A DNA stretch of 61,616 nt. Source: an uncultured virus (IMG/VR IMGVR_UViG_3300037112_000155) (Duplodnaviria > Heunggongvirae > Uroviricota > Caudoviricetes). The notes beneath the pieces were generated by a model. It was not told the DNA's origin. It did no database searches and worked only from the letters and a program-made list of their open reading frames with translations. Positions 32,343-54,572 of this stretch are shown piece by piece (position 1 is the stretch's first letter; the number at the start of each line of letters is the position of its first letter). The stretch is taken from positions 62,001 to 123,616 of the IMG/VR virus record IMGVR_UViG_3300037112_000155; one strand, given 5' to 3'. The translations under genes and the position numbers were made by a program.

Positions 32343-33950
32343 ATGGGCTTCGTACGAACACTCACCCGCGCGGCGATTCTGTGGGGCAAAGAGAATGCGC
32401 TTGATTTACTAAGTGCTGTCGTGCTCCCGGGCACCAGCCGCGTCGTTACGCGCACGCTGGGCCGGGAGGCCAGCCGATGGGCCACCAGCAACCTCTGGGC
32501 AGCCCGTACGGTCGATGGCGGTATTCTGGGTGGTGTTAGGCCCCCAGAGGCCGGCGCTAAGTACACGCTGCCCAAAGGCCTGCCCAAGGCCGGCGAGCGC
32601 CACCTGGTCATCGAGAATGGCCCGCATACTCTGGAGGGATTCAATGGAGTCATCGAGTCCGGCTACGGTAAGGGAAGAAAGAGCCTTCTCTTTACTGGCC
32701 GAATACCTGTCAAAGTCGGAGCACAAACATCGCTCCGAAGGGTTGAATATCACGTCCACGACGCGGACGTTGCTGGCTTGCATTATGACCTCGCAGTTGC
32801 CGGCCTGCCGCCTGGAACAGAGCAGTTCGAGCTGAACATCCCCAACGGGGACTTCAAAGGCCGCTACGCCATCGTCAAGACTGCCAAGGGATTTCTATCC
32901 CTGATGCTGAAAGACGAAGGCCCGGTGATCGAGAAGCCATCGTACTCGCTCAAGCCCGCGGCGTTCCTGGATCAGGTCCGCCTGGACAACCAGAACGGCG
33001 AGCGCTGGATCGTCGAGCAGAAGGAAGATGGATCGCTCGGCAACTTCAAGATCGGCAAGGGCAAGGCAGTATTTCACAGCCACCGGGAGGGTGGTCAGAC
33101 CTACTATGATCGAATCCCCGCACTCGAAGATCTCCACAACACCTCACGCTACTGGTCCTCACGCAAGCTCATGCCATACCCCGATCTTGACGGCACTGTC
33201 GGCAAGGTTGAACTTGTCCACCCAGACGGCGTGCATCGTGTTGCGGGAATTCTCAACGCGCTTCCCGAACGTGCTCAAGAGATTCAGAACCTTCGCGGGC
33301 CCGTACAGGCCCACTGCTGGGATCTCGTCAAGTACAAAGGACGTGACGTAAGCGGTTTGCCTTATGTGCAGCGCAGGGCCTTGGCTGAGAAAGTCGTACG
33401 TGAGATCCGGTTTTACAACCGGAACTGGGACATGGTTCAGAAGATGGATGCTGGCGATGATCCAGTCGCGTTCTACAACTCAATCGTGCGTCTGCCTCTG
33501 CCCTTCGGCGAAGGCGTCGTGATCAAGGATGCCAGCGATCCCACCGGCGAGACCTGGTTCAAGGTCAAGCAGGTGGACTTTGCTGACCTGGAGCTGGTGG
33601 AAGTTCTGCCAGGCTCCGGGAAGTATGCCGATTCCGTCGGCAAGCTGGTAGTCCGCAATCCCGCGAACGGTGCGATCGGCGAAGTAGGTTCATTCGCCAT
33701 ACCGGATCAGCAACGGGAGTGGATCTGGAACCACCGAGAGCTGGTCCAGGGATCCACGGTCAAGATCCAAGTGCAGGAACTGACTGCGCGCGGTGCGCCA
33801 CGCGCCGGCGTCTTCATGGGATTCCATGAGGGCAAAGGCAACACCGAAGCAGGCCTGTACATGTATGCCGAGAGCCTAGCTGGCGGCGATCAAGAAGAGA
33901 TGATGCGAACGAAGTATGCCCTGATAGCCGCACAGGGCTGGAGACGCTGA
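32343..33950 (+). CDS. ATP-dependent DNA ligase with LigD 3'-phosphoesterase-like N-terminal domain
   Basis: EQKEDG (KxDG), EGVVIKD, WFKVK, C-terminal OB fold (PR..F); H.A..AGLHYDL. Confidence 0.8.
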   Translation: MGFVRTLTRAAILWGKENALDLLSAVVLPGTSRVVTRTLGREASRWATSNLWAARTVDGGILGGVRPPEAGAKYTLPKGLPKAGERHLVIENGPHTLEGFNGVIESGYGKGRKSLLFTGRIPVKVGAQTSLRRVEYHVHDADVAGLHYDLAVAGLPPGTEQFELNIPNGDFKGRYAIVKTAKGFLSLMLKDEGPVIEKPSYSLKPAAFLDQVRLDNQNGERWIVEQKEDGSLGNFKIGKGKAVFHSHREGGQTYYDRIPALEDLHNTSRYWSSRKLMPYPDLDGTVGKVELVHPDGVHRVAGILNALPERAQEIQNLRGPVQAHCWDLVKYKGRDVSGLPYVQRRALAEKVVREIRFYNRNWDMVQKMDAGDDPVAFYNSIVRLPLPFGEGVVIKDASDPTGETWFKVKQVDFADLELVEVLPGSGKYADSVGKLVVRNPANGAIGEVGSFAIPDQQREWIWNHRELVQGSTVKIQVQELTARGAPRAGVFMGFHEGKGNTEAGLYMYAESLAGGDQEEMMRTKYALIAAQGWRR

Positions 33951-41303: not shown

Positions 41304-41552
41304 TTGTCCAGAGAATCAAAACGCTCCCTTCGTTATGACGTCTTCTCACCTGGCGCTAGCGCGCCTCTCCGTACAGTCCGAACGATTCAGCGAGCCAAGC
41401 GGCTCGCGCGAAGCCTCGGGTACGGAGCCATTGTGGAGCGTAAGTTATGCTGTCGTGAAAACGGCATGTTGATCTACAAACTCGACCGGTCCTGGTTCAT
41501 CGGTCCCTGCCGGCGAACGATGATGTCTCGTCCGAAAGTGAAACAATCATGA
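41304..41552 (+). CDS. Basic hypothetical protein
   Basis: Ends in an ATGA overlap with the cca gene. Confidence 0.5.
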   Translation: MSRESKRSLRYDVFSPGASAPLRTVRTIQRAKRLARSLGYGAIVERKLCCRENGMLIYKLDRSWFIGPCRRTMMSRPKVKQS

Positions 41553-42838
41553 TCCTCAGAATGCAACCGACCGTCCGTATGGTCGCGGTCGAGAAGCTGA
41601 TCTACCACCTACGCAAGGCCGGCAAAGAAGCCTACCTGATCGGCGGTTGCGTTCGAGATCGTATCCTGGCCAATCTCCCCAAAGACTATGACATCGTCAC
41701 CAACGCAGTGCCTGACGAGGTCATGGCAATCTTCCCAGATTGCTCCAAGCCCGTAGGCGCTAAGTTTGGCGTCGTTCTCGTCACGATCAATGAAGAGAGT
41801 TTCGAGGTCGCCACCTTCCGCGCCGAGGGCGCCTATTCTGACCACCGTCACCCTGATGCTGTGGTCTACAGCAAGACCCTGGCCGAGGACGTTCAGCGGC
41901 GGGACTTCACCATCAATGCCCTGGCCCTGGACATCGAGACCGGTGAGCTGGTGGATCTCACCGGCGGAGTCATGGACATCGCGCACAAGAAGATCCGCTG
42001 CATCGGGGATCCCAACCGGCGCTTTGAAGAAGACGCCCTGCGTTTACTCCGGGCAATCCGATTTGCCGCCCGGCTGGACTTCCAGATTGACGAGCCCACC
42101 TGGGGCGCGATGCGCGTCAATGCTCCCTTACTCGCTGAGATCAGCGGAGAACGGAAGCGCGAGGAGCTGATCGCGATGCTGAGCCAGCCCCGGGCCGTAC
42201 GCGCCCTGGAACTGCTTCTGCTCTCGAACCTGCTGGACTACCTGCTGCCGGAGCTAGATACCGACTTCGGAAGGGTTCTGCGTCGCCTCAACCAGATGCC
42301 TGCAATCTCCTGGTCCAGCGCCTACGGTCAGGCCGTCAAGGATCACGTCCTGATCGCATTGTCTCTGCTGTTCCTGGATCTCGGCACCACGGCACGGAAG
42401 AACGCGCTGCTGGGTCTGAAGTTCTCGACGGCGGATGCTGCCCAGATCACTAACATCATCACCAAGGCACAGGTTTGGAGCTGCATCCCGGACTGGAACC
42501 TGGCAGCACAGCGGCGCTATCGCCGCGATGCGGACTATGACCTGATTCGTCAGGTGGCGCTGCACGATTACTTCGCGCGGCCGGCTTACACCGGGGGCCA
42601 ACGGGCATTTCATCGTGTGGATCAGTTCATGAGCGCGGCGGGTTTGCCTGGGACTTATCCCAAGGTACTGCTCAACGGCGATGACTTGATTGCCCTGGGT
42701 TATAAGCCCAGTTCTGCGTTCGGCTTCGTTCTGCACAATCTCGAGGACGAACAGCTCGAAGAGAAGATCAAAACGCGTGAGGAAGCCGTGGCGTTTGTAA
42801 CGACACAGCTTCGGAACTCGCCAATGGCGGTCTCCTAA
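41549..42838 (+). CDS. cca: CCA-adding tRNA nucleotidyltransferase (class II)
   Basis: GGCVRD..DYD; EVATFR; RRDFTINA; RFEEDALRLLRAIRF; SGER..EE. Confidence 0.9.
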   Translation: MILRMQPTVRMVAVEKLIYHLRKAGKEAYLIGGCVRDRILANLPKDYDIVTNAVPDEVMAIFPDCSKPVGAKFGVVLVTINEESFEVATFRAEGAYSDHRHPDAVVYSKTLAEDVQRRDFTINALALDIETGELVDLTGGVMDIAHKKIRCIGDPNRRFEEDALRLLRAIRFAARLDFQIDEPTWGAMRVNAPLLAEISGERKREELIAMLSQPRAVRALELLLLSNLLDYLLPELDTDFGRVLRRLNQMPAISWSSAYGQAVKDHVLIALSLLFLDLGTTARKNALLGLKFSTADAAQITNIITKAQVWSCIPDWNLAAQRRYRRDADYDLIRQVALHDYFARPAYTGGQRAFHRVDQFMSAAGLPGTYPKVLLNGDDLIALGYKPSSAFGFVLHNLEDEQLEEKIKTREEAVAFVTTQLRNSPMAVS

Positions 42839-43273: not shown

Positions 43274-43605
43274 TGAAGGGCTGCCGAGAGCACTGCCCGC
43301 ACTGCGGTGCGGTCTTAGACAGGACACCTCTGTTCAAGCATTTGAACAAGTGTCCGCGTCGTCCCAAGCTCAAGATCAAGGCCACTCGCCGAGTCGTGAC
43401 GATGTGCATTGAGGCCCGACTGGCCTGTGGGTGCCACGTGAGGCGTTGGTTTGGCGACATCCCGGATGGCCATGTTCATGCTGAAACGGTTCATGCATGC
43501 GAGGCCTGGAAGGATCACAAGTACGACCTGACAGCTCAGGAACAGAAGATGAGCCCGTACGGGAACAAGGTCATTCGCCACGCAAAGGGGCAGACACGAA
43601 TATGA
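43273..43605 (+). CDS. Cys/His-rich hypothetical protein
   Basis: CPHC..H..C; CGCH; overlaps both neighbours. Confidence 0.6.
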   Translation: MKGCREHCPHCGAVLDRTPLFKHLNKCPRRPKLKIKATRRVVTMCIEARLACGCHVRRWFGDIPDGHVHAETVHACEAWKDHKYDLTAQEQKMSPYGNKVIRHAKGQTRI

Positions 43606-44810
43606 AGATGATTTGGACGGACGCACTCAAGCAGGAGATCGCCAATGGTTACATCGGTATTCAACACCACCCGACTCTGCCGTTACGGATCTTCAACTAT
43701 ACCCATAAGGCTACGATCGATGAGCGTTGGAGCACGGAGATCTGCTTCTGCCGCGGTCTGATCATCGATGATACCGATGAGGTCATCGCGCGTCCGCAAC
43801 CGAAGTTCTTCAACCTGGGCCAGACGGTCGACATCGTTGGCCAAGGACTATTGGAATTCTCAGAGGAGTTCGTCCTGGGCATTGCCCGGGCCTACGGCAA
43901 CGAGCTGGAGTTCACCGACAAGATCGACGGCCAGATGGGCATCGTCTGGAACTACAAGGAGCACTGGGGCGTTGCCACTCGCGGGTCGTTCACCTCGGAC
44001 GGCGCGATCTGGGCGACTGCCAAGTTCCAGAAGTTCGTCAAGTATGGCATGGTCGAGTGCATCCCCAAGGGATTGACCTTGATCGTTGAGATCGTCGCCA
44101 AGCATCTCCGCATCGTGATTCCTTACGACTACGAGACCCTGGTGCTTTTGACGGCCGTCATGAACGACACCGGTGACGAGTTGCGCCACTGGCAACTGGA
44201 AGGCCTCTGGAAGGAGCTGAACGCAGGCGCCAAGGGGAAACCCTGGTGCCGTGTAGTGCCTGCCTTCTCGGGCAAGACTCTGATGGCCTGCAGGCAGGAT
44301 AAGGACCTGACCCGTGAAGGTTATGTGGTCTCAGTTCGCCGCGGCGGACAACCTCCGCTCAAGGTGAAGATCAAGCTCGAGGAGTATCTTCGGCTGCATC
44401 GCCTGGTCACGAATGTGACGCCCCAGATGATCTGGGAGCAGATGGGCGATCCGCTCAAGCCCTGGTTGAGGCCGACGCACCTGCAGTCGCAGTTGCCGCC
44501 TCACTTCAAGACCTGGATCGAGGAATGGCAGAGGAGACTCTATCAGGCTTTTCACTTCCAGATCTGTAAGGCGCTGGATGTTCTGGCCTGGATTACACCA
44601 TTGCGCGCCGAGGTCAAGGATGACCGGGAGTTCTATCGCCTGGTGATCGAACGGGACATGGTCCTGGGCCCGATCGCCATGCTGATGATGGACAACCGGA
44701 TCTGGGAGGCCCATGAGGCTCTCTGGAAGATCGTTCGGCCTCACGGCCGGGACGTCTTCTACATCGATGGCCAGGGCGAGGACAAGCCCACTCACCTCAT
44801 CGCAGCATAA
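43602..44810 (+). CDS. RNA ligase, T4 Rnl1 family
   Basis: IFNY; CRGLI; PKFFN; KIDG; ATRGSF.S; EGYVV; KVKIK..EY. Confidence 0.9.
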   Translation: MKMIWTDALKQEIANGYIGIQHHPTLPLRIFNYTHKATIDERWSTEICFCRGLIIDDTDEVIARPQPKFFNLGQTVDIVGQGLLEFSEEFVLGIARAYGNELEFTDKIDGQMGIVWNYKEHWGVATRGSFTSDGAIWATAKFQKFVKYGMVECIPKGLTLIVEIVAKHLRIVIPYDYETLVLLTAVMNDTGDELRHWQLEGLWKELNAGAKGKPWCRVVPAFSGKTLMACRQDKDLTREGYVVSVRRGGQPPLKVKIKLEEYLRLHRLVTNVTPQMIWEQMGDPLKPWLRPTHLQSQLPPHFKTWIEEWQRRLYQAFHFQICKALDVLAWITPLRAEVKDDREFYRLVIERDMVLGPIAMLMMDNRIWEAHEALWKIVRPHGRDVFYIDGQGEDKPTHLIAA

Positions 44811-46624: not shown

Positions 46625-46984
46625 ATGGCGAAGAGCCTGATTGGAAGCGTGACCGACACCACCTGGTCGGACGCCGTAGGCAAAGCGGATGGCCTTACCC
46701 TGGTGCTTTTCGGAGCGGCGTGGTGTGGCCCGTGCGAGCAGATCCGAGTGAATGTCGAGGTCATCGCCAAGCAGAACGCCGGCGTGGTCAACGTGCTTTA
46801 TTACGACGTCGACCTGACCAATCACCGGGCAGCTTCCTACAACGTCCGCGGGGTTCCTACCCTGATCCTGTTCGACGGCGAGAACAAGCTGGCTACTCTG
46901 ACCGGGATGCAGCCCGTCGCCAAGATCCAGAAGGGGATTGACTCCCATCTTTCCCAGGAGGTTGTCGTTGCGAACCCTCTTTAG
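46625..46984 (+). CDS. trxA: Thioredoxin
   Basis: WCGPC; VRGVPTLILF; AAGGAG RBS. Confidence 0.92.
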   Translation: MAKSLIGSVTDTTWSDAVGKADGLTLVLFGAAWCGPCEQIRVNVEVIAKQNAGVVNVLYYDVDLTNHRAASYNVRGVPTLILFDGENKLATLTGMQPVAKIQKGIDSHLSQEVVVANPL

Positions 46985-48065
46985 TTGCCTGTACGGGTCG
47001 AGCCTGTACGGCACGACCATTCCTACCTCTGACCGTGACATCAAGCACGTGATCCTGCCGAAGTTCTCGGATCTCCTGCTGGGCCGTGCGCCCAAGAACA
47101 AGTACCGGTCCACCAAGACCGGCACCGGAAAGAACTCGGCCGAGCACATTGATGTCGAGAACATCCCGCTCCACATCCTGGCGCGGGACTTCATGGGCGG
47201 TCAGAGCTATGCCCTGGAGTTGGTGTTCGCTGTCGACTTCAATGGGGCCGAGCAGACGATCTATGACCCGCGGTTTCGCCAGTTCTGTAATGAGCTGCGC
47301 GAGCGCTTCCTAACCTCACAGATCCGGGCGATTGCCCGGTACTGCGCGGATCAGGCTGGTTTGTACTCCTTGAAGGGCGAGCGGTTGAATGCCGTGCTCG
47401 CCACCATCGAACTGCTCAAAGGCTTCCGGGCCGATGAGCGCCTGTTCATGGTCCAACCGTTCCTTGAAGAGAAGGCGCGGTTGATTGAGAAGGAGTTTCC
47501 GGAATACTTCCACGTTACGGAGTACGATGCCTCCGGTAAGGGTGCCATGCGCCCCTGCATCAAACTGCTCGACAAGATCCTGCCCTATACGTCGAGCTTC
47601 CGCTACAACCTGCAAACTGCAGAGGCTCTGCTCGCCAAGTTTGGCAGCCGCGCTAAGCAGGCGTCAGAGAGCAACGTGGACTGGAAGGCCACGTCTCATG
47701 CTCTCCGTATCGTGAACGAGGGAATCACCATACTCGCGACCGGGAAACTGACGTTTCCGCTTCCTGACCCGCTGCGCACTTACCTGCGCCAAGTGAGACT
47801 CGGGGAGGTCCCTTATCAGCAGGTACTAACCCAGATTGAAACCAGTCTGGCCACACTCGAAGAAATGCGTGGCATCTCGGAGTTACCAGAACTTACACCA
47901 GAGCTGCAATTGGATCTGGAAGTCTGGCTCCTTGGCTGGTTGGGTTATTTCTACTCCGACGTCCTCAGACAGAGGTGGAGTATTGTTCGCATCCTGGAGT
48001 TCTGCAGAGCCACTGTCTCTCGTACGTGGACTCCTCTCTCCCAATTCTTCAAGTCCTCCCCGTAA
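46938..48065 (+). CDS. Pol-beta superfamily nucleotidyltransferase (RlaP/NrdC.11-like)
   Basis: YGSSLYGT....SDRD; DWKA.SHALR. Confidence 0.8.
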   Translation: MTPIFPRRLSLRTLFSCLYGSSLYGTTIPTSDRDIKHVILPKFSDLLLGRAPKNKYRSTKTGTGKNSAEHIDVENIPLHILARDFMGGQSYALELVFAVDFNGAEQTIYDPRFRQFCNELRERFLTSQIRAIARYCADQAGLYSLKGERLNAVLATIELLKGFRADERLFMVQPFLEEKARLIEKEFPEYFHVTEYDASGKGAMRPCIKLLDKILPYTSSFRYNLQTAEALLAKFGSRAKQASESNVDWKATSHALRIVNEGITILATGKLTFPLPDPLRTYLRQVRLGEVPYQQVLTQIETSLATLEEMRGISELPELTPELQLDLEVWLLGWLGYFYSDVLRQRWSIVRILEFCRATVSRTWTPLSQFFKSSP

Positions 48066-51444: not shown

Positions 51445-51450
51445 TTCATG

Positions 51451-51573
51451 GGGCCGGTAGTTCAGCGGTTAGAACAGCGGGCCAACTGAAGGCAATCCAC
51501 ACGTTGGGTCAACCAGCAACTGGCTAAAGCCGAGCAAACCCGTAGGTCGCAGGTTCGAATCCTGCCCGGCCCC
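51451..51573 (+). tRNA. tRNA-like gene with a 57-nt anticodon loop (about 50-nt insertion); isotype undetermined
   Basis: Acceptor GGGCCGG/CCGGCCC; D stem GTTC/GAAC; anticodon stem GCGGG/CCCGT; T arm GCAGG-TTCGAAT-CCTGC. Confidence 0.75.
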
Positions 51574-51587
51574 ACTAGGAGAATGAG

Positions 51588-52066: not shown

Positions 52067-52695
52067 TGTCAGAACAAACCTGGTATAGGACTGAAGAACG
52101 TGCGTTCGCTCCCGGTATCGCTGAAGGGTGGCCAACAGTCATTCCGGCGCCGCATTCCAAGCACGGACGCCTGGTCCGCCAGAGCGGCGACCCAGACCGC
52201 TTGCATGCCATCATTCAGGGATGCGCTCAGTGCCTGCCTGAAGACTGGGGCATCACACTCGAGATCGAGCGTGAAGGCGGCGGAGTCGATCTGTACGATC
52301 CCACCGGATCTCGTGTGGACTTCCCATCGAACAGGGAGACCCTGCACGAACAGTTCTCGGATGCCCTACAGTATGCGATCGAGAAAGCGGCCAAGCAGGC
52401 GCTGGTCGTCAATTACCCGGATCCCCAGACCTGGCTGATCAAGCGGGACATCGCCAATAACAAGCTGGTGTTCTTTCAATCGAAGGTGACCCGGGAAACT
52501 GGAGTTTACTCCGAGAGCATGGCCATTGGCGTGGGAACGCAGCATTACGCTGACCATCCCAATTGGTGCATTCTTCGGGTTACCGCGATGGCATCCCCGC
52601 AGGCTCGTGGGGATCAGCGGACCTGGCTCGAAGACTACCTTTCCGGACCGGACTGGCAGGATGAAATCGGAATGAAGGAGCAAGTCAGCAAATGA
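52063..52695 (+). CDS. Hypothetical protein
   Basis: GAGG RBS; ATGA overlaps. Confidence 0.65.
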   Translation: MMSEQTWYRTEERAFAPGIAEGWPTVIPAPHSKHGRLVRQSGDPDRLHAIIQGCAQCLPEDWGITLEIEREGGGVDLYDPTGSRVDFPSNRETLHEQFSDALQYAIEKAAKQALVVNYPDPQTWLIKRDIANNKLVFFQSKVTRETGVYSESMAIGVGTQHYADHPNWCILRVTAMASPQARGDQRTWLEDYLSGPDWQDEIGMKEQVSK

Positions 52696-52952
52696 GTGAG
52701 TTGATCAGTTACGACCTGCCGTTCGGAGTCAAGATCGGTGTCAACGACCGAACCAAGGATCACGAGCCGGGCACGCCGAACAAGGTGGCCACCATCTCGT
52801 CGAACCTGGACACCGAGATCAGCTACGAGTCTGCGGACACGCTGGAGTGGTTCCTCATGAACCTGGCCGATCAGGGTCTGGACATGAACGATCGTCGCTT
52901 CGGCTACGCCCTGGAGGCGACGGTCAAGACGCTCAAGGAACGTCCGAGCTAG
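52692..52952 (+). CDS. Hypothetical protein
   Basis: AAGGAG upstream; ATGA overlap. Confidence 0.65.
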   Translation: MSELISYDLPFGVKIGVNDRTKDHEPGTPNKVATISSNLDTEISYESADTLEWFLMNLADQGLDMNDRRFGYALEATVKTLKERPS

Positions 52953-52981
52953 CTGGATTATGCGATGGGGCTGTGATCTTC

Positions 52982-53110
52982 TATACTAGACAGTGAAGAT
53001 GATCCCCGTGACCCAATCCGCGCAGTGGAATCCGATGAATGGTGACGCCGGGGATCCGTAGTCGATCGCAAGATCGTGACTACGCACCCTCGGCTAACCC
53101 CGAGGGTTTT
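52982..53110 (+). promoter_or_regulatory. Candidate leader peptide/attenuator upstream of the tRNA array
   Basis: TATACT -10 box at 52982; ORF 52993-53061; stems 53001-53056 and 53057-53084; terminator 53086-53110. Confidence 0.5.
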
Positions 53111-53128
53111 GTCGTTTTAGCACCACGA

Positions 53129-53204
53129 TGACGAGTAGCTCAGTTGGTAGAGCGGCGCCCTGTTAAGGCGTTGGTCGCAGGTTCGACCCCTGCCTCGTCA
53201 GCCA
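53129..53204 (+). tRNA. tRNA-Asn(GTT)
   Basis: Full cloverleaf; loop CT-GTT-AA; G73; encoded CCA. Confidence 0.95.
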
Positions 53205-53237
53205 ATCTTAGTGAGCACTGAGTGGTGCTCACATCAC

Positions 53238-53334
53238 GCAGGGTAAGGATCTTTCTGTTCGAGTCGTGACACACTCACGTCTTTGACGCTCGCACGGTGT
53301 AGATCCCTTGGGACGTGAGAACACCCCTCCCTGC
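53238..53334 (+). ncRNA. Candidate pseudoknotted small RNA in the tRNA array
   Basis: GCAGGG/CCCTGC closing stem; GGATCT/AGATCC; crossing pair CTCACGTC/GACGTGAG. Confidence 0.45.
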
Positions 53335-53352
53335 ACCTCTTTGAACCTCCAT

Positions 53353-53401
53353 GGGGCCGCGCGGGCCGTCACCTGCGGGAGGATGGCAACAGGCTCCACC
53401 A
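53353..53401 (+). ncRNA. 49-nt tRNA-Ala-like acceptor minihelix ending in ACCA
   Basis: GGGGCC/GGCTCC with G3-U70, A73 and CCA; internal GCCGTC/GATGGC stem. Confidence 0.55.
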
Positions 53402-53406
53402 AGTTC

Positions 53407-53483
53407 GGCGGTGTAGCTCAGCTGGTTAGAGCGCGACACTCATAACGTCGAGGTCCGTGGTTCAAGTCCACGCACCGCCACCA
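53407..53483 (+). tRNA. tRNA-Met(CAT) (Ile2 not excluded)
   Basis: Cloverleaf; loop CT-CAT-AA; A31-C39 mismatch; CCA. Confidence 0.9.
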
Positions 53484-53732
53484 AGCAGCGCCCTGGAGAC
53501 CGAGGCGACTCTAAGTATCGGTCCAACGCATGCAACCGGAGCTGCTACTCCGATGGTTGCTACAGGCTGTCCGTTGAGCAGAACGGGTTGGCGCGACCGG
53601 CGGGCGCAACTCCCGCCTCCCTTCTTAGGTGTTTCACCCGATTGTTCTGTTTCAGCATGTGTTGAAAATGGCAGTAATGGTGAATGGCGTCCTGATCCGA
53701 GGCGCGGTATCAAGTATCGGTCACCAACCCAC

Positions 53733-53818
53733 AGGGGTGAGGGGCAACGGTTCGGCCCAGCGGTCTCCAAAACCGCCGACGCAAGTCACTGCAGGTTCGA
53801 ATCCTGTCACCCCTGCCA
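53733..53818 (+). tRNA. tRNA-Trp(CCA) with long variable arm
   Basis: AGGGGTG/CACCCCT; loop CT-CCA-AA; G73; CCA; variable hairpin GAC-GCAA-GTC. Confidence 0.88.
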
Positions 53819-53840
53819 ACCGCTTTACCCGAGGAATTGA

Positions 53841-54572
53841 ATGTTACCTACCGACATGAAATGGCCCACCGACCTGGTGATTGTTCGCCACGGCCAGTCC
53901 CAGCGCAACGTAGAGAAGGAACAGGCGAAGGCCAAAGGCCTGCTGAAGTCCTACGTGGGCGACATCCGGGACCAGGACACACCCCTGACGCCCCTGGGCT
54001 TCGGCCAGGCGCTCCACGTAGGTGTGGAGCTGCGCAACCTCTACCCGTTCGACGTCGTGCTCACCTCGCCCTATCTGCGCACCAAGCAGACAACTGACCA
54101 GATCCTCAAGGGCCTGGGCGTAGAGAACAAGGCGGGCCTCGAGCGCTTTCGGCCGGGCATCAAGGTCGTCGAGGACGAACGGCTGCGCGAGATCGAGTTC
54201 GGCATCTTCGACGGGCTGACCCGTGAGGGTCTGCAGGCGAAGTATCCGGAGGAAGTCACCCGGCGGAACAAAGAGGGCAAGTATTGGTATCGCCCACCTG
54301 GCGGGGAGTCGCGCCCGGACGTCGGCATGCGGCTTCACAGCATTCTGGGCACCCTGAGCCGCGACTACGCCGGCGAGAAGGTCCTGGTGGTCACCCACAG
54401 CGTTGTGGTGCTGGTGCTCCGCAAGCTGCTGGAGCGCTGGACCGAGGAACAGTATCTCGATGTTGATGCCAACGACGACGTCAAGAACTGTTCGATCACG
54501 CACTATACGGCCGGAGGGAACAGCCACAAACTGATCCTGAAGTCCTACAACACCGTCTGTTACCCGGAGTGA
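53841..54572 (+). CDS. Histidine phosphatase (phosphoglycerate mutase family)
   Basis: VRHGQS; SPY.RT.QT; LRE..FG; PGGES; VVTH; NCS. Confidence 0.92.
   Translation: MLPTDMKWPTDLVIVRHGQSQRNVEKEQAKAKGLLKSYVGDIRDQDTPLTPLGFGQALHVGVELRNLYPFDVVLTSPYLRTKQTTDQILKGLGVENKAGLERFRPGIKVVEDERLREIEFGIFDGLTREGLQAKYPEEVTRRNKEGKYWYRPPGGESRPDVGMRLHSILGTLSRDYAGEKVLVVTHSVVVLVLRKLLERWTEEQYLDVDANDDVKNCSITHYTAGGNSHKLILKSYNTVCYPE

Follow-up and report, generated by a model that had tools for sequence, protein, structure and literature searches.

Does the 49-nt hairpin that sits in the tRNA array of this uncultured virus, with an encoded CCA at its 3' end and the terminal pairs of an alanine tRNA, represent a small RNA gene, and if so what could it do? 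The element lies at 53353-53401 (+) of the window, i.e. the whole stretch of 61,616 nt that was analysed; this stretch makes up the latter half of an IMG/VR virus record of 123.6 kb that comes from peat-type metagenomes. The element is probably a real small RNA, because similar units stand beside tRNA genes in several unrelated phages. Our favoured though tentative reading is of a small RNA gene belonging to a type that recurs among phages, a tRNA-like unit that is anticodon-less and keeps only the alanine-type acceptor end. Its product could be a processed, CCA-ended RNA that is chargeable by the host alanyl-tRNA synthetase (AlaRS) and unable to decode, a prediction from sequence that we would put somewhat below an even chance.

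The element, GGGGCCGCGCGGGCCGTCACCTGCGGGAGGATGGCAACAGGCTCCACCA, occurs once in the window, even with up to three mismatches allowed. Its ends form a closing helix of six pairs (G1-C72, G2-C71, G3.U70, G4-C69, C5-G68 and C6-G67) between the acceptor-like 5' strand GGGGCC (positions 1-6, 53353..53358, +) and the 3' strand GGCTCC (53392..53397, +), in which the T at 53395 is U70. Position 7:66 is G.A and unpaired, so that the helix has six pairs rather than seven. The discriminator A73 and the encoded CCA follow directly 3' of the helix (53398..53401, +). In the MFE fold (-24.7 kcal/mol, 0.805 of the ensemble) the helix opens into a 6x4 internal loop, with GCGCGG on its 5' side (53359..53364, +; G7 opposite A66) and AACA on its 3' side (53388..53391, +), which leads to one inner hairpin (53365..53387, +) whose stem GCCGUC/GAUGGC is followed by CC/GG closing a UGCG tetraloop (53374-53377), i.e. 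a C(UGCG)G cap. The inner hairpin shows neither T-loop nor anticodon-loop features. The element as a whole lacks D, anticodon and T arms, and neither TTC nor a T-loop motif occurs anywhere in its 49 nt. A preliminary description of this locus had reported a hairpin with G1-C72, G2-C71, G3-U70, A73 and CCA but no D, anticodon or T arm, and both the sequence and the fold bear this out, with the stem fixed at six pairs. Two other structures were considered and rejected. In an armless tRNA with the inner hairpin as its anticodon arm, the loop would be 11-13 nt rather than 7, and a larger RNA sharing the element's 3' end would need a second GGRGCC further upstream, which the spacer does not contain.

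The G3-U70 pair is the major determinant for AlaRS, minihelices can be alanylated, and the ends of tmRNA, which is itself charged by AlaRS, share the same pattern. The element has the G3.U70 acceptor helix and single-stranded A73-CCA of minihelix-Ala and microhelix-Ala, as well as the tmRNA-type end features G3.U70, A73 and CCA. It has neither twelve stacked pairs nor a 7-bp helix with a small closing loop, its structure being six pairs, the 6x4 internal loop and an unrelated 6-bp hairpin. Four of the five bacterial alanine identity elements set out in a passage of Giege and Eriani (2023, PMC9976931) are present (A73, G2-C71, G3.U70 and G4-C69); the fifth, G20, belongs to the D loop, which the element does not have. 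Rfam searches run at the gathering threshold, and with the cutoff relaxed to E<=10 for a 5.4-kb and for a 231-nt stretch, gave no match for the element; RF00005 (tRNA, the cloverleaf) was not matched in any of them, nor was a tmRNA family even at E<=10. ARAGORN made no call on the element's strand at either default or relaxed thresholds.

The array is encoded on the same strand as the element, in the order tRNA-Asn (53129-53204), element, tRNA-Met (CAT; 53407..53483, +; ARAGORN, Rfam 67 bits) and tRNA-Trp (53733-53818), which confirms the previously described position in a tRNA array, 5 nt before tRNA-Met. A structured spacer of 147 nt (53205..53351, +) runs from tRNA-Asn to U(-1) (53352, +), the base preceding the predicted 5' end, and a 5-nt spacer, AGTTC (53402..53406, +), separates the element from tRNA-Met. 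The 202-nt stretch that holds the element (53205-53406) folds at -78.8 kcal/mol (z -2.46). The element hairpin is kept when this whole stretch is folded, and pairing of U(-1) with A73 and of GAAC (53343-53346) with the GUUC of the 5-nt spacer extends it to the 5' end of tRNA-Met in the predicted precursor. CCA is encoded in five of the seven array tRNAs examined, and was not seen in tRNA-His or in an insertion-bearing tRNA-like gene. Five small ORFs over the array spacers had no PHROG match, and a sigma-70 promoter scan of 52600-54200 found no promoter. Upstream in the window, 5-12 kb from the element, PHROG matches identify a tRNA nucleotidyltransferase (CCA-adding enzyme; 41549-42838, +), an RNA ligase (43497-44810, +) and a nucleotidyltransferase (46938-48065, +); an ATP-dependent ligase lies at 32343-33950 (+), also by PHROG match.

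The array contains other odd or degenerate tRNA-like pieces. The insertion-bearing tRNA-like gene at 51450-51576 (+) scores 55.8 bits against RF00005 (51451-51573) and was missed by default ARAGORN; its acceptor, D and T arms are normal, and about 57 nt replace the 7-nt anticodon loop, i.e. an insertion of about 50 nt that forms small hairpins. Its acceptor is GGGGCCG/CGGCCCC (G3-C70) with A73, its CCA is unencoded, and both it and the 49-nt element start GGGGCCG with CAT directly before. In the tRNA-Trp gene (CCA anticodon; +, 86 nt) the extra region that separates the anticodon arm from the T arm is unusually long, at about 13 nt. A second ACCA-ended hairpin (53694-53726, +; GATCCGA..TCGGTC-A-CCA) lies 6 nt upstream of tRNA-Trp, and in its stem and part of the loop it repeats the hairpin at 53498-53523 (GACCGA..TCGGTC), which comes earlier in the spacer and is without ACCA; the Met-Trp spacer in which both lie is 249 nt long and includes a weak tRNA-like fold at 53577-53653, called by ARAGORN at the 80% threshold only. 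A terminator-like hairpin with a T-run (53086-53117, +) lies 11 nt upstream of tRNA-Asn, and together with a -10-like TATACT near 52980 it could mark out, in the gap that separates the last ORF from the array, a small RNA of about 110 nt.

The wider genome can be read from G001, a 214,300-base, 99%-complete IMG/VR record that is 93-99.6% identical, block by block, to the record from which the window comes. No AlaRS or SmpB gene was found in G001, and this was counted against reading the element as a mini-tRNA; the 214-kb genome contains no further copies of the element or its spacers. In G001, ARAGORN calls a permuted (two-piece) tmRNA away from the element, at 75193-75494 (-), 2.7 kb past the end of the window (Rfam RF04321, 68.7 bits), and its acceptor, GGGCCC/GGGTCC-A-CC, has G3.U70. 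ARAGORN proposes for it a long tag that the program does not recognise. A second permuted tmRNA is found in the distant relative G003 (83183-83611), and the two together suggest hosts with a two-piece tmRNA, e.g. Alphaproteobacteria.

Few relatives are available in which conservation of the element can be followed. Protein-guided IMG/VR searches returned only the near-identical G001 and G002 and the distant G003-G005, a protein-guided metagenome scan for relatives returned none, and the closest isolates (phiRSL1 and phiCbK-like phages) have only about 50% protein identity. A blastn search of the array against 50,697 phage records matched tRNAs only. A 16-mer of the element occurs in 96 IMG/VR stretches, and the whole element occurs only in the G001 copy. 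That copy is unchanged; it lies in a block (52.2-61.6 kb) with three differences in 9.4 kb, the nearest to the element being at 52167 and 55398, and because the surrounding block is near-identical the identity of the element is uninformative. G002 (97% protein identity) seems to end about 620 nt short of the element site, assuming colinearity. G003 (281 kb, 54% identity) has three tRNA-Lys genes and its permuted tmRNA but no such mini-unit. None of the divergent relatives found carries the element, which was counted against the mini-tRNA reading. RNA-library contigs, which as assemblies do not show RNA ends, are identical to the phage at 52800-53213, 53194-53344 and 53670-53866, and among the pieces listed none spans the element, which speaks neither for nor against its expression. 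A contig from a DNA run covers 53341-53501 with no differences, and no sequence variants were seen at the element in the assembled contigs of four runs.

We looked for similar units by scanning IMG/VR with a pattern fixed as GGGGC/GCTCCACCA and anchored on tRNA-like sequence shortly downstream. The scan GGGGC-N22-42-GCTCCACCA-N8-28-TAGCTCA gave nine loci, three of which are next to a same-strand ARAGORN tRNA: the element itself, a unit of 44 nt lying 1 nt upstream of a tRNA-Trp, and one of 46 nt lying 8 nt upstream of a tRNA-Val. A G3.U70 scan with a T-loop anchor, run without a matched control, gave 29 loci, seven of them tRNA-adjacent and four of these new (52, 53, 53 and 37 nt). A control with a same-composition, non-pairing 3' strand gave five loci, including one family (three loci) that lies 16 nt before tRNA-Arg and has no closing helix, and permitting G.U at 2:71 and/or 4:69 added four loci, none of them tRNA-adjacent. 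When the two G3.U70 scans are pooled there are seven distinct tRNA-adjacent units and 21 others. The six besides the element are 37-53 nt overall and each lies 1-11 nt upstream of a same-strand tRNA.

The tRNA-adjacent units share more than the pattern that was used to find them. A sixth pair, 6:67, is present in all seven even though the pattern left it free, and 7:66 is unpaired in all seven (G.A in three, A.A in two, C.C in two); among the 21 non-adjacent units the sixth pair is present in 10, and in three of those 10 the helix ends there. T is found at -1 in five of the seven, and the sequence TCCAT precedes G1 in both the element and the 37-nt unit. The interiors are more varied: a second hairpin that resembles a T arm is found in three, and only an unrelated hairpin in the other four, the element included. 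We drew up the class as units of 37-53 nt with exactly six acceptor pairs including G3.U70, 7:66 unpaired, an encoded A73-CCA and a same-strand tRNA 1-11 nt downstream; the element has all of these features, although the class was defined post hoc from the GGGGC/GCTCCACCA pattern and the numbers are small. This shared design is in our view the strongest evidence against a stray hairpin and for membership of a class that is heterogeneous but real. The earlier suggestion of an aminoacylatable mini-tRNA is thus a reasonable reading, given four of the five identity elements, a tRNA-Ala acceptor end and tRNA-adjacent recurrence with the G.U specifically at 3:70. Named phages searched with two of the other mini-unit loci matched only the flanking tRNAs, and none of 401 bacterial control genomes (the class of a Mesorhizobium genome) contained the anchored motif; at roughly 1 Gb this sample is too small for the result to carry meaning.

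A pattern in which all pairs are Watson-Crick, GGGGC..GCCCCACCA, gave 24 loci, of which 20 are tRNA-adjacent, in four families. These hairpins, of 43-53 nt, stand in tightly packed arrays at the places of tRNAs, and the changes that distinguish variants are compensatory. The loci L152-L174 (e.g. L152 401-449, L157 401-443, L162 401-446 and L163 401-453) have the form GGGGC..GCCCC-A-CCA, with closing stems of 8-12 pairs and spacers of 1-4 nt between tRNA genes, and can be regarded as a sister class of CCA-ended mini-units that is not of the alanine type.

If the element is not a functional unit, it might be an old, decaying remnant of a phage tRNA-Ala gene or of a gene for a tRNA-like domain, maybe still excised via its surviving ends but with no function of its own. 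Loss of such a gene would fit the near-complete G001 record, in which ARAGORN finds eight tRNAs and no tRNA-Ala, and a remnant would be at home among the other degenerate pieces of the array; the single near-identical second copy also gives no signal of conservation. The acceptor end is that of a common bacterial tRNA-Ala in all 16 end bases, position 66 being different (A in the element, C in the tRNAs). A tRNA-Ala acceptor pattern with positions 1-7 and 67-76 fixed matched at least 120 stretches, and among the matches listed (80) many are alphaproteobacterial, which also fits the phage's two-piece tmRNA. We compared positions 7-39 of the element with the interiors of 59 distinct 76-nt tRNA-Ala genes with the same acceptor stem, i.e. 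those left from the 80 fetched loci after removal of duplicates and of lengths other than 76. The element's interior aligned with them no better than shuffled interiors did (mean z -0.69, maximum 1.47), and the z-scores against the consensus of the tRNA-Ala interiors and against one phage tRNA-Ala were -1.8 and -0.57, respectively. Segments of the D, anticodon or T arms would be expected to survive a recent internal deletion, and none is recognisable, so a freshly deleted tRNA-Ala is unlikely; an old remnant should have lost some of the 16 end bases, and is disfavoured because all sixteen are intact. Moreover, the interior is a closed hairpin with a UNCG-type loop, and decay would not be expected to give the six-pair, unpaired-7:66 design shared by six independent phage units. 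We consider a remnant unlikely on balance.

A second alternative is that the element acts in cis, as tRNA-like punctuation or a leader, by bringing in RNase P or by giving the precursor its shape, and that the released hairpin is waste. The location 5 nt before tRNA-Met would fit such an element, as would the way in which U(-1)-A73 and GAAC/GUUC carry the hairpin exactly to the tRNA-Met 5' end in the precursor fold; the recurrent units also all lie directly upstream of a tRNA, although this was imposed by the search anchor, and the preference for T at -1 points in the same direction. However, a processing mark needs a helix, and perhaps the CCA, but not G3.U70, and moving the wobble to 2:71 or 4:69 gave no tRNA-adjacent unit. 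The tRNAs for Gln, Glu and His in the array have no such leader. We therefore regard a cis-acting element as distinctly unlikely, and hold the same low opinion of its supposed task, the correct cutting of tRNA-Met and of the upstream spacer RNA.

The element could also be a G+C-rich intergenic hairpin whose likeness to an alanine acceptor end is accidental, particularly as it was picked out while looking for many kinds of oddity. Its folding z-score is only -1.50, with 13 of 200 shuffles equally stable, so its stability alone is ordinary for such a G+C content, and this too was counted against the mini-tRNA reading. Using 100 dinucleotide shuffles of the window, both strands included, we found that the G3.U70 + ACCA motif is not rare window-wide: a 6-bp G3.U70 helix followed by ACCA occurs four times in the window against a mean of 1.95 in shuffles, and the GGG-starting form occurs twice against a mean of 0.18, with at least one in 17 of the 100 shuffles. 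The other GGG-starting copy (47081-47115, +; 35 nt, GGGCCG..CGGTCC-A-CCA) lies in the nucleotidyltransferase coding region and is probably due to chance. When the expectation for the GGG form is scaled, by simple proportion, to one strand of the two long array spacers, together 451 nt, it falls to about 7e-4. A chance origin of the element is therefore improbable, as it is on the tRNA strand in an array spacer, 5 nt from a tRNA, with a tRNA-Ala-type acceptor end; nor would chance be expected to give it an architecture common to six other tRNA-adjacent units. The preliminary description had allowed for a chance match or a deleted tRNA-Ala remnant, and the shuffle expectation and the interior comparison respectively speak against these.

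Least probable is that the element inhibits trans-translation as a mimic of the tRNA-like domain (TLD) of tmRNA that would titrate SmpB, the mode of action put forward for the TLD-only tmRNA of DS6A. The element does share G3.U70, A73 and CCA with tmRNA (the phage's own included), and a TLD-only molecule strongly inhibits tmRNA, perhaps by SmpB titration, in a passage of Hudson, Lau and Williams (2014, PMC4131195). However, the 49 nt contain no T arm or D-loop analogue for SmpB and no TTC, match no Rfam tmRNA family at E<=10 and come from a phage that supplies a full permuted tmRNA, which is at odds with blocking the pathway. The tmRNA competitor suggested earlier is likewise unsupported, there being no T arm and the phage having its own two-piece tmRNA.

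Returning to the small, CCA-ended alanine-type RNA that we favour, we infer its transcription, processing, charging and role as follows. The element would be co-transcribed with the tRNA array, and RNase P would cut before G1, guided by the U at -1 and the 3' ACCA. A further RNase P cut at the 5' end of pre-tRNA-Met would leave the element with a 5-nt 3' tail, which a 3' exonuclease could trim back to the helix, exposing the encoded CCA. The 49-nt product would then present G2-C71, G3.U70, G4-C69, A73 and CCA to the host AlaRS and would probably be alanylated. As it has no anticodon, T arm or D arm it could not decode, SmpB binding is unlikely, and it would act through its acceptor end alone. 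Because no T arm is stacked on the acceptor helix, the element is a poor mimic of the classical substrates of RNase P and EF-Tu and of minihelix substrates. It also does not occupy a tight tRNA slot, having 148 nt of other sequence before it, and this was counted against the mini-tRNA reading. Our preferred guess as to role is that it serves as a mimic or decoy for factors that read the acceptor end of tRNA-Ala or tmRNA, candidate targets being AlaRS itself, or nucleases and nucleotidyltransferases of the host that act on the 3' end. A decoy would fit the phage's tRNA-end maintenance genes (the CCA-adding enzyme and RNA ligase) and its own tmRNA, but both this role and that of an alanine donor are speculation.

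A broader possibility, which we hold to be doubtful, is that the element is a natural phage counterpart of microhelix-Ala, one of a family of six-pair, G3.U70, CCA-ended RNAs of about 40-50 nt that would be released from tRNA operons, charged by the host AlaRS and used without decoding. Such a family might, for example, absorb or mislead host factors that attack or sense the acceptor end of tRNA-Ala or tmRNA, or might give alanine to a non-ribosomal acceptor. If true, this would mean that viruses use aminoacylation outside decoding, would provide a simple handle on host systems targeting tRNA 3' ends, and would reveal a layer of phage tRNA clusters that is currently missed by tRNA finders and Rfam. 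The 'second genetic code' of the alanine acceptor stem was worked out with synthetic minihelices, and the value of the present copy is as one more, rather minimal, example.

A full-text literature search found no description of a natural phage minihelix-Ala unit, or of any natural RNA made up of hardly anything beyond the alanine acceptor stem, and only the TLD-only tmRNA of mycobacteriophage DS6A came close. As that molecule is outlined in the passage cited, it is, like the element, a phage-encoded alanine-type acceptor RNA with no coding or decoding part, whereas the element is without a T arm or D-loop analogue and fits no tmRNA model. With two-piece tmRNAs, including the phage's own, the element has in common G3.U70, A73 and a CCA-type end (the terminal A of the phage tmRNA is not encoded), whereas the phage tmRNA is about 300 nt long, has a tag reading frame and pseudoknots, carries the acceptor GGGCCC/GGGTCC and lies about 11 kb away. 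The tRNA cluster of phage T4 encodes species 1 and 2 (rnaC/rnaD), small stable non-tRNA RNAs of about 120-140 nt that are matured by the tRNA-processing machinery. The element resembles them in being a non-tRNA RNA encoded within a phage tRNA cluster, and to our knowledge they are not known as alanine-identity minihelices. A further likeness in design is to the synthetic minihelix-Ala and microhelix-Ala reportedly made by Francklyn and Schimmel in 1989, i.e. an anticodon-less acceptor helix with G3.U70, which the element matches in its G3.U70 acceptor helix, A73, CCA end and absence of an anticodon, with G2-C71 and G4-C69 also present. It differs from these synthetic molecules in having six acceptor pairs rather than seven, and in what lies beyond the helix, namely an internal loop and an unrelated hairpin in place of the coaxially stacked T arm of the minihelix or the small closing loop of the microhelix; and, unlike them, it is natural and phage-encoded.
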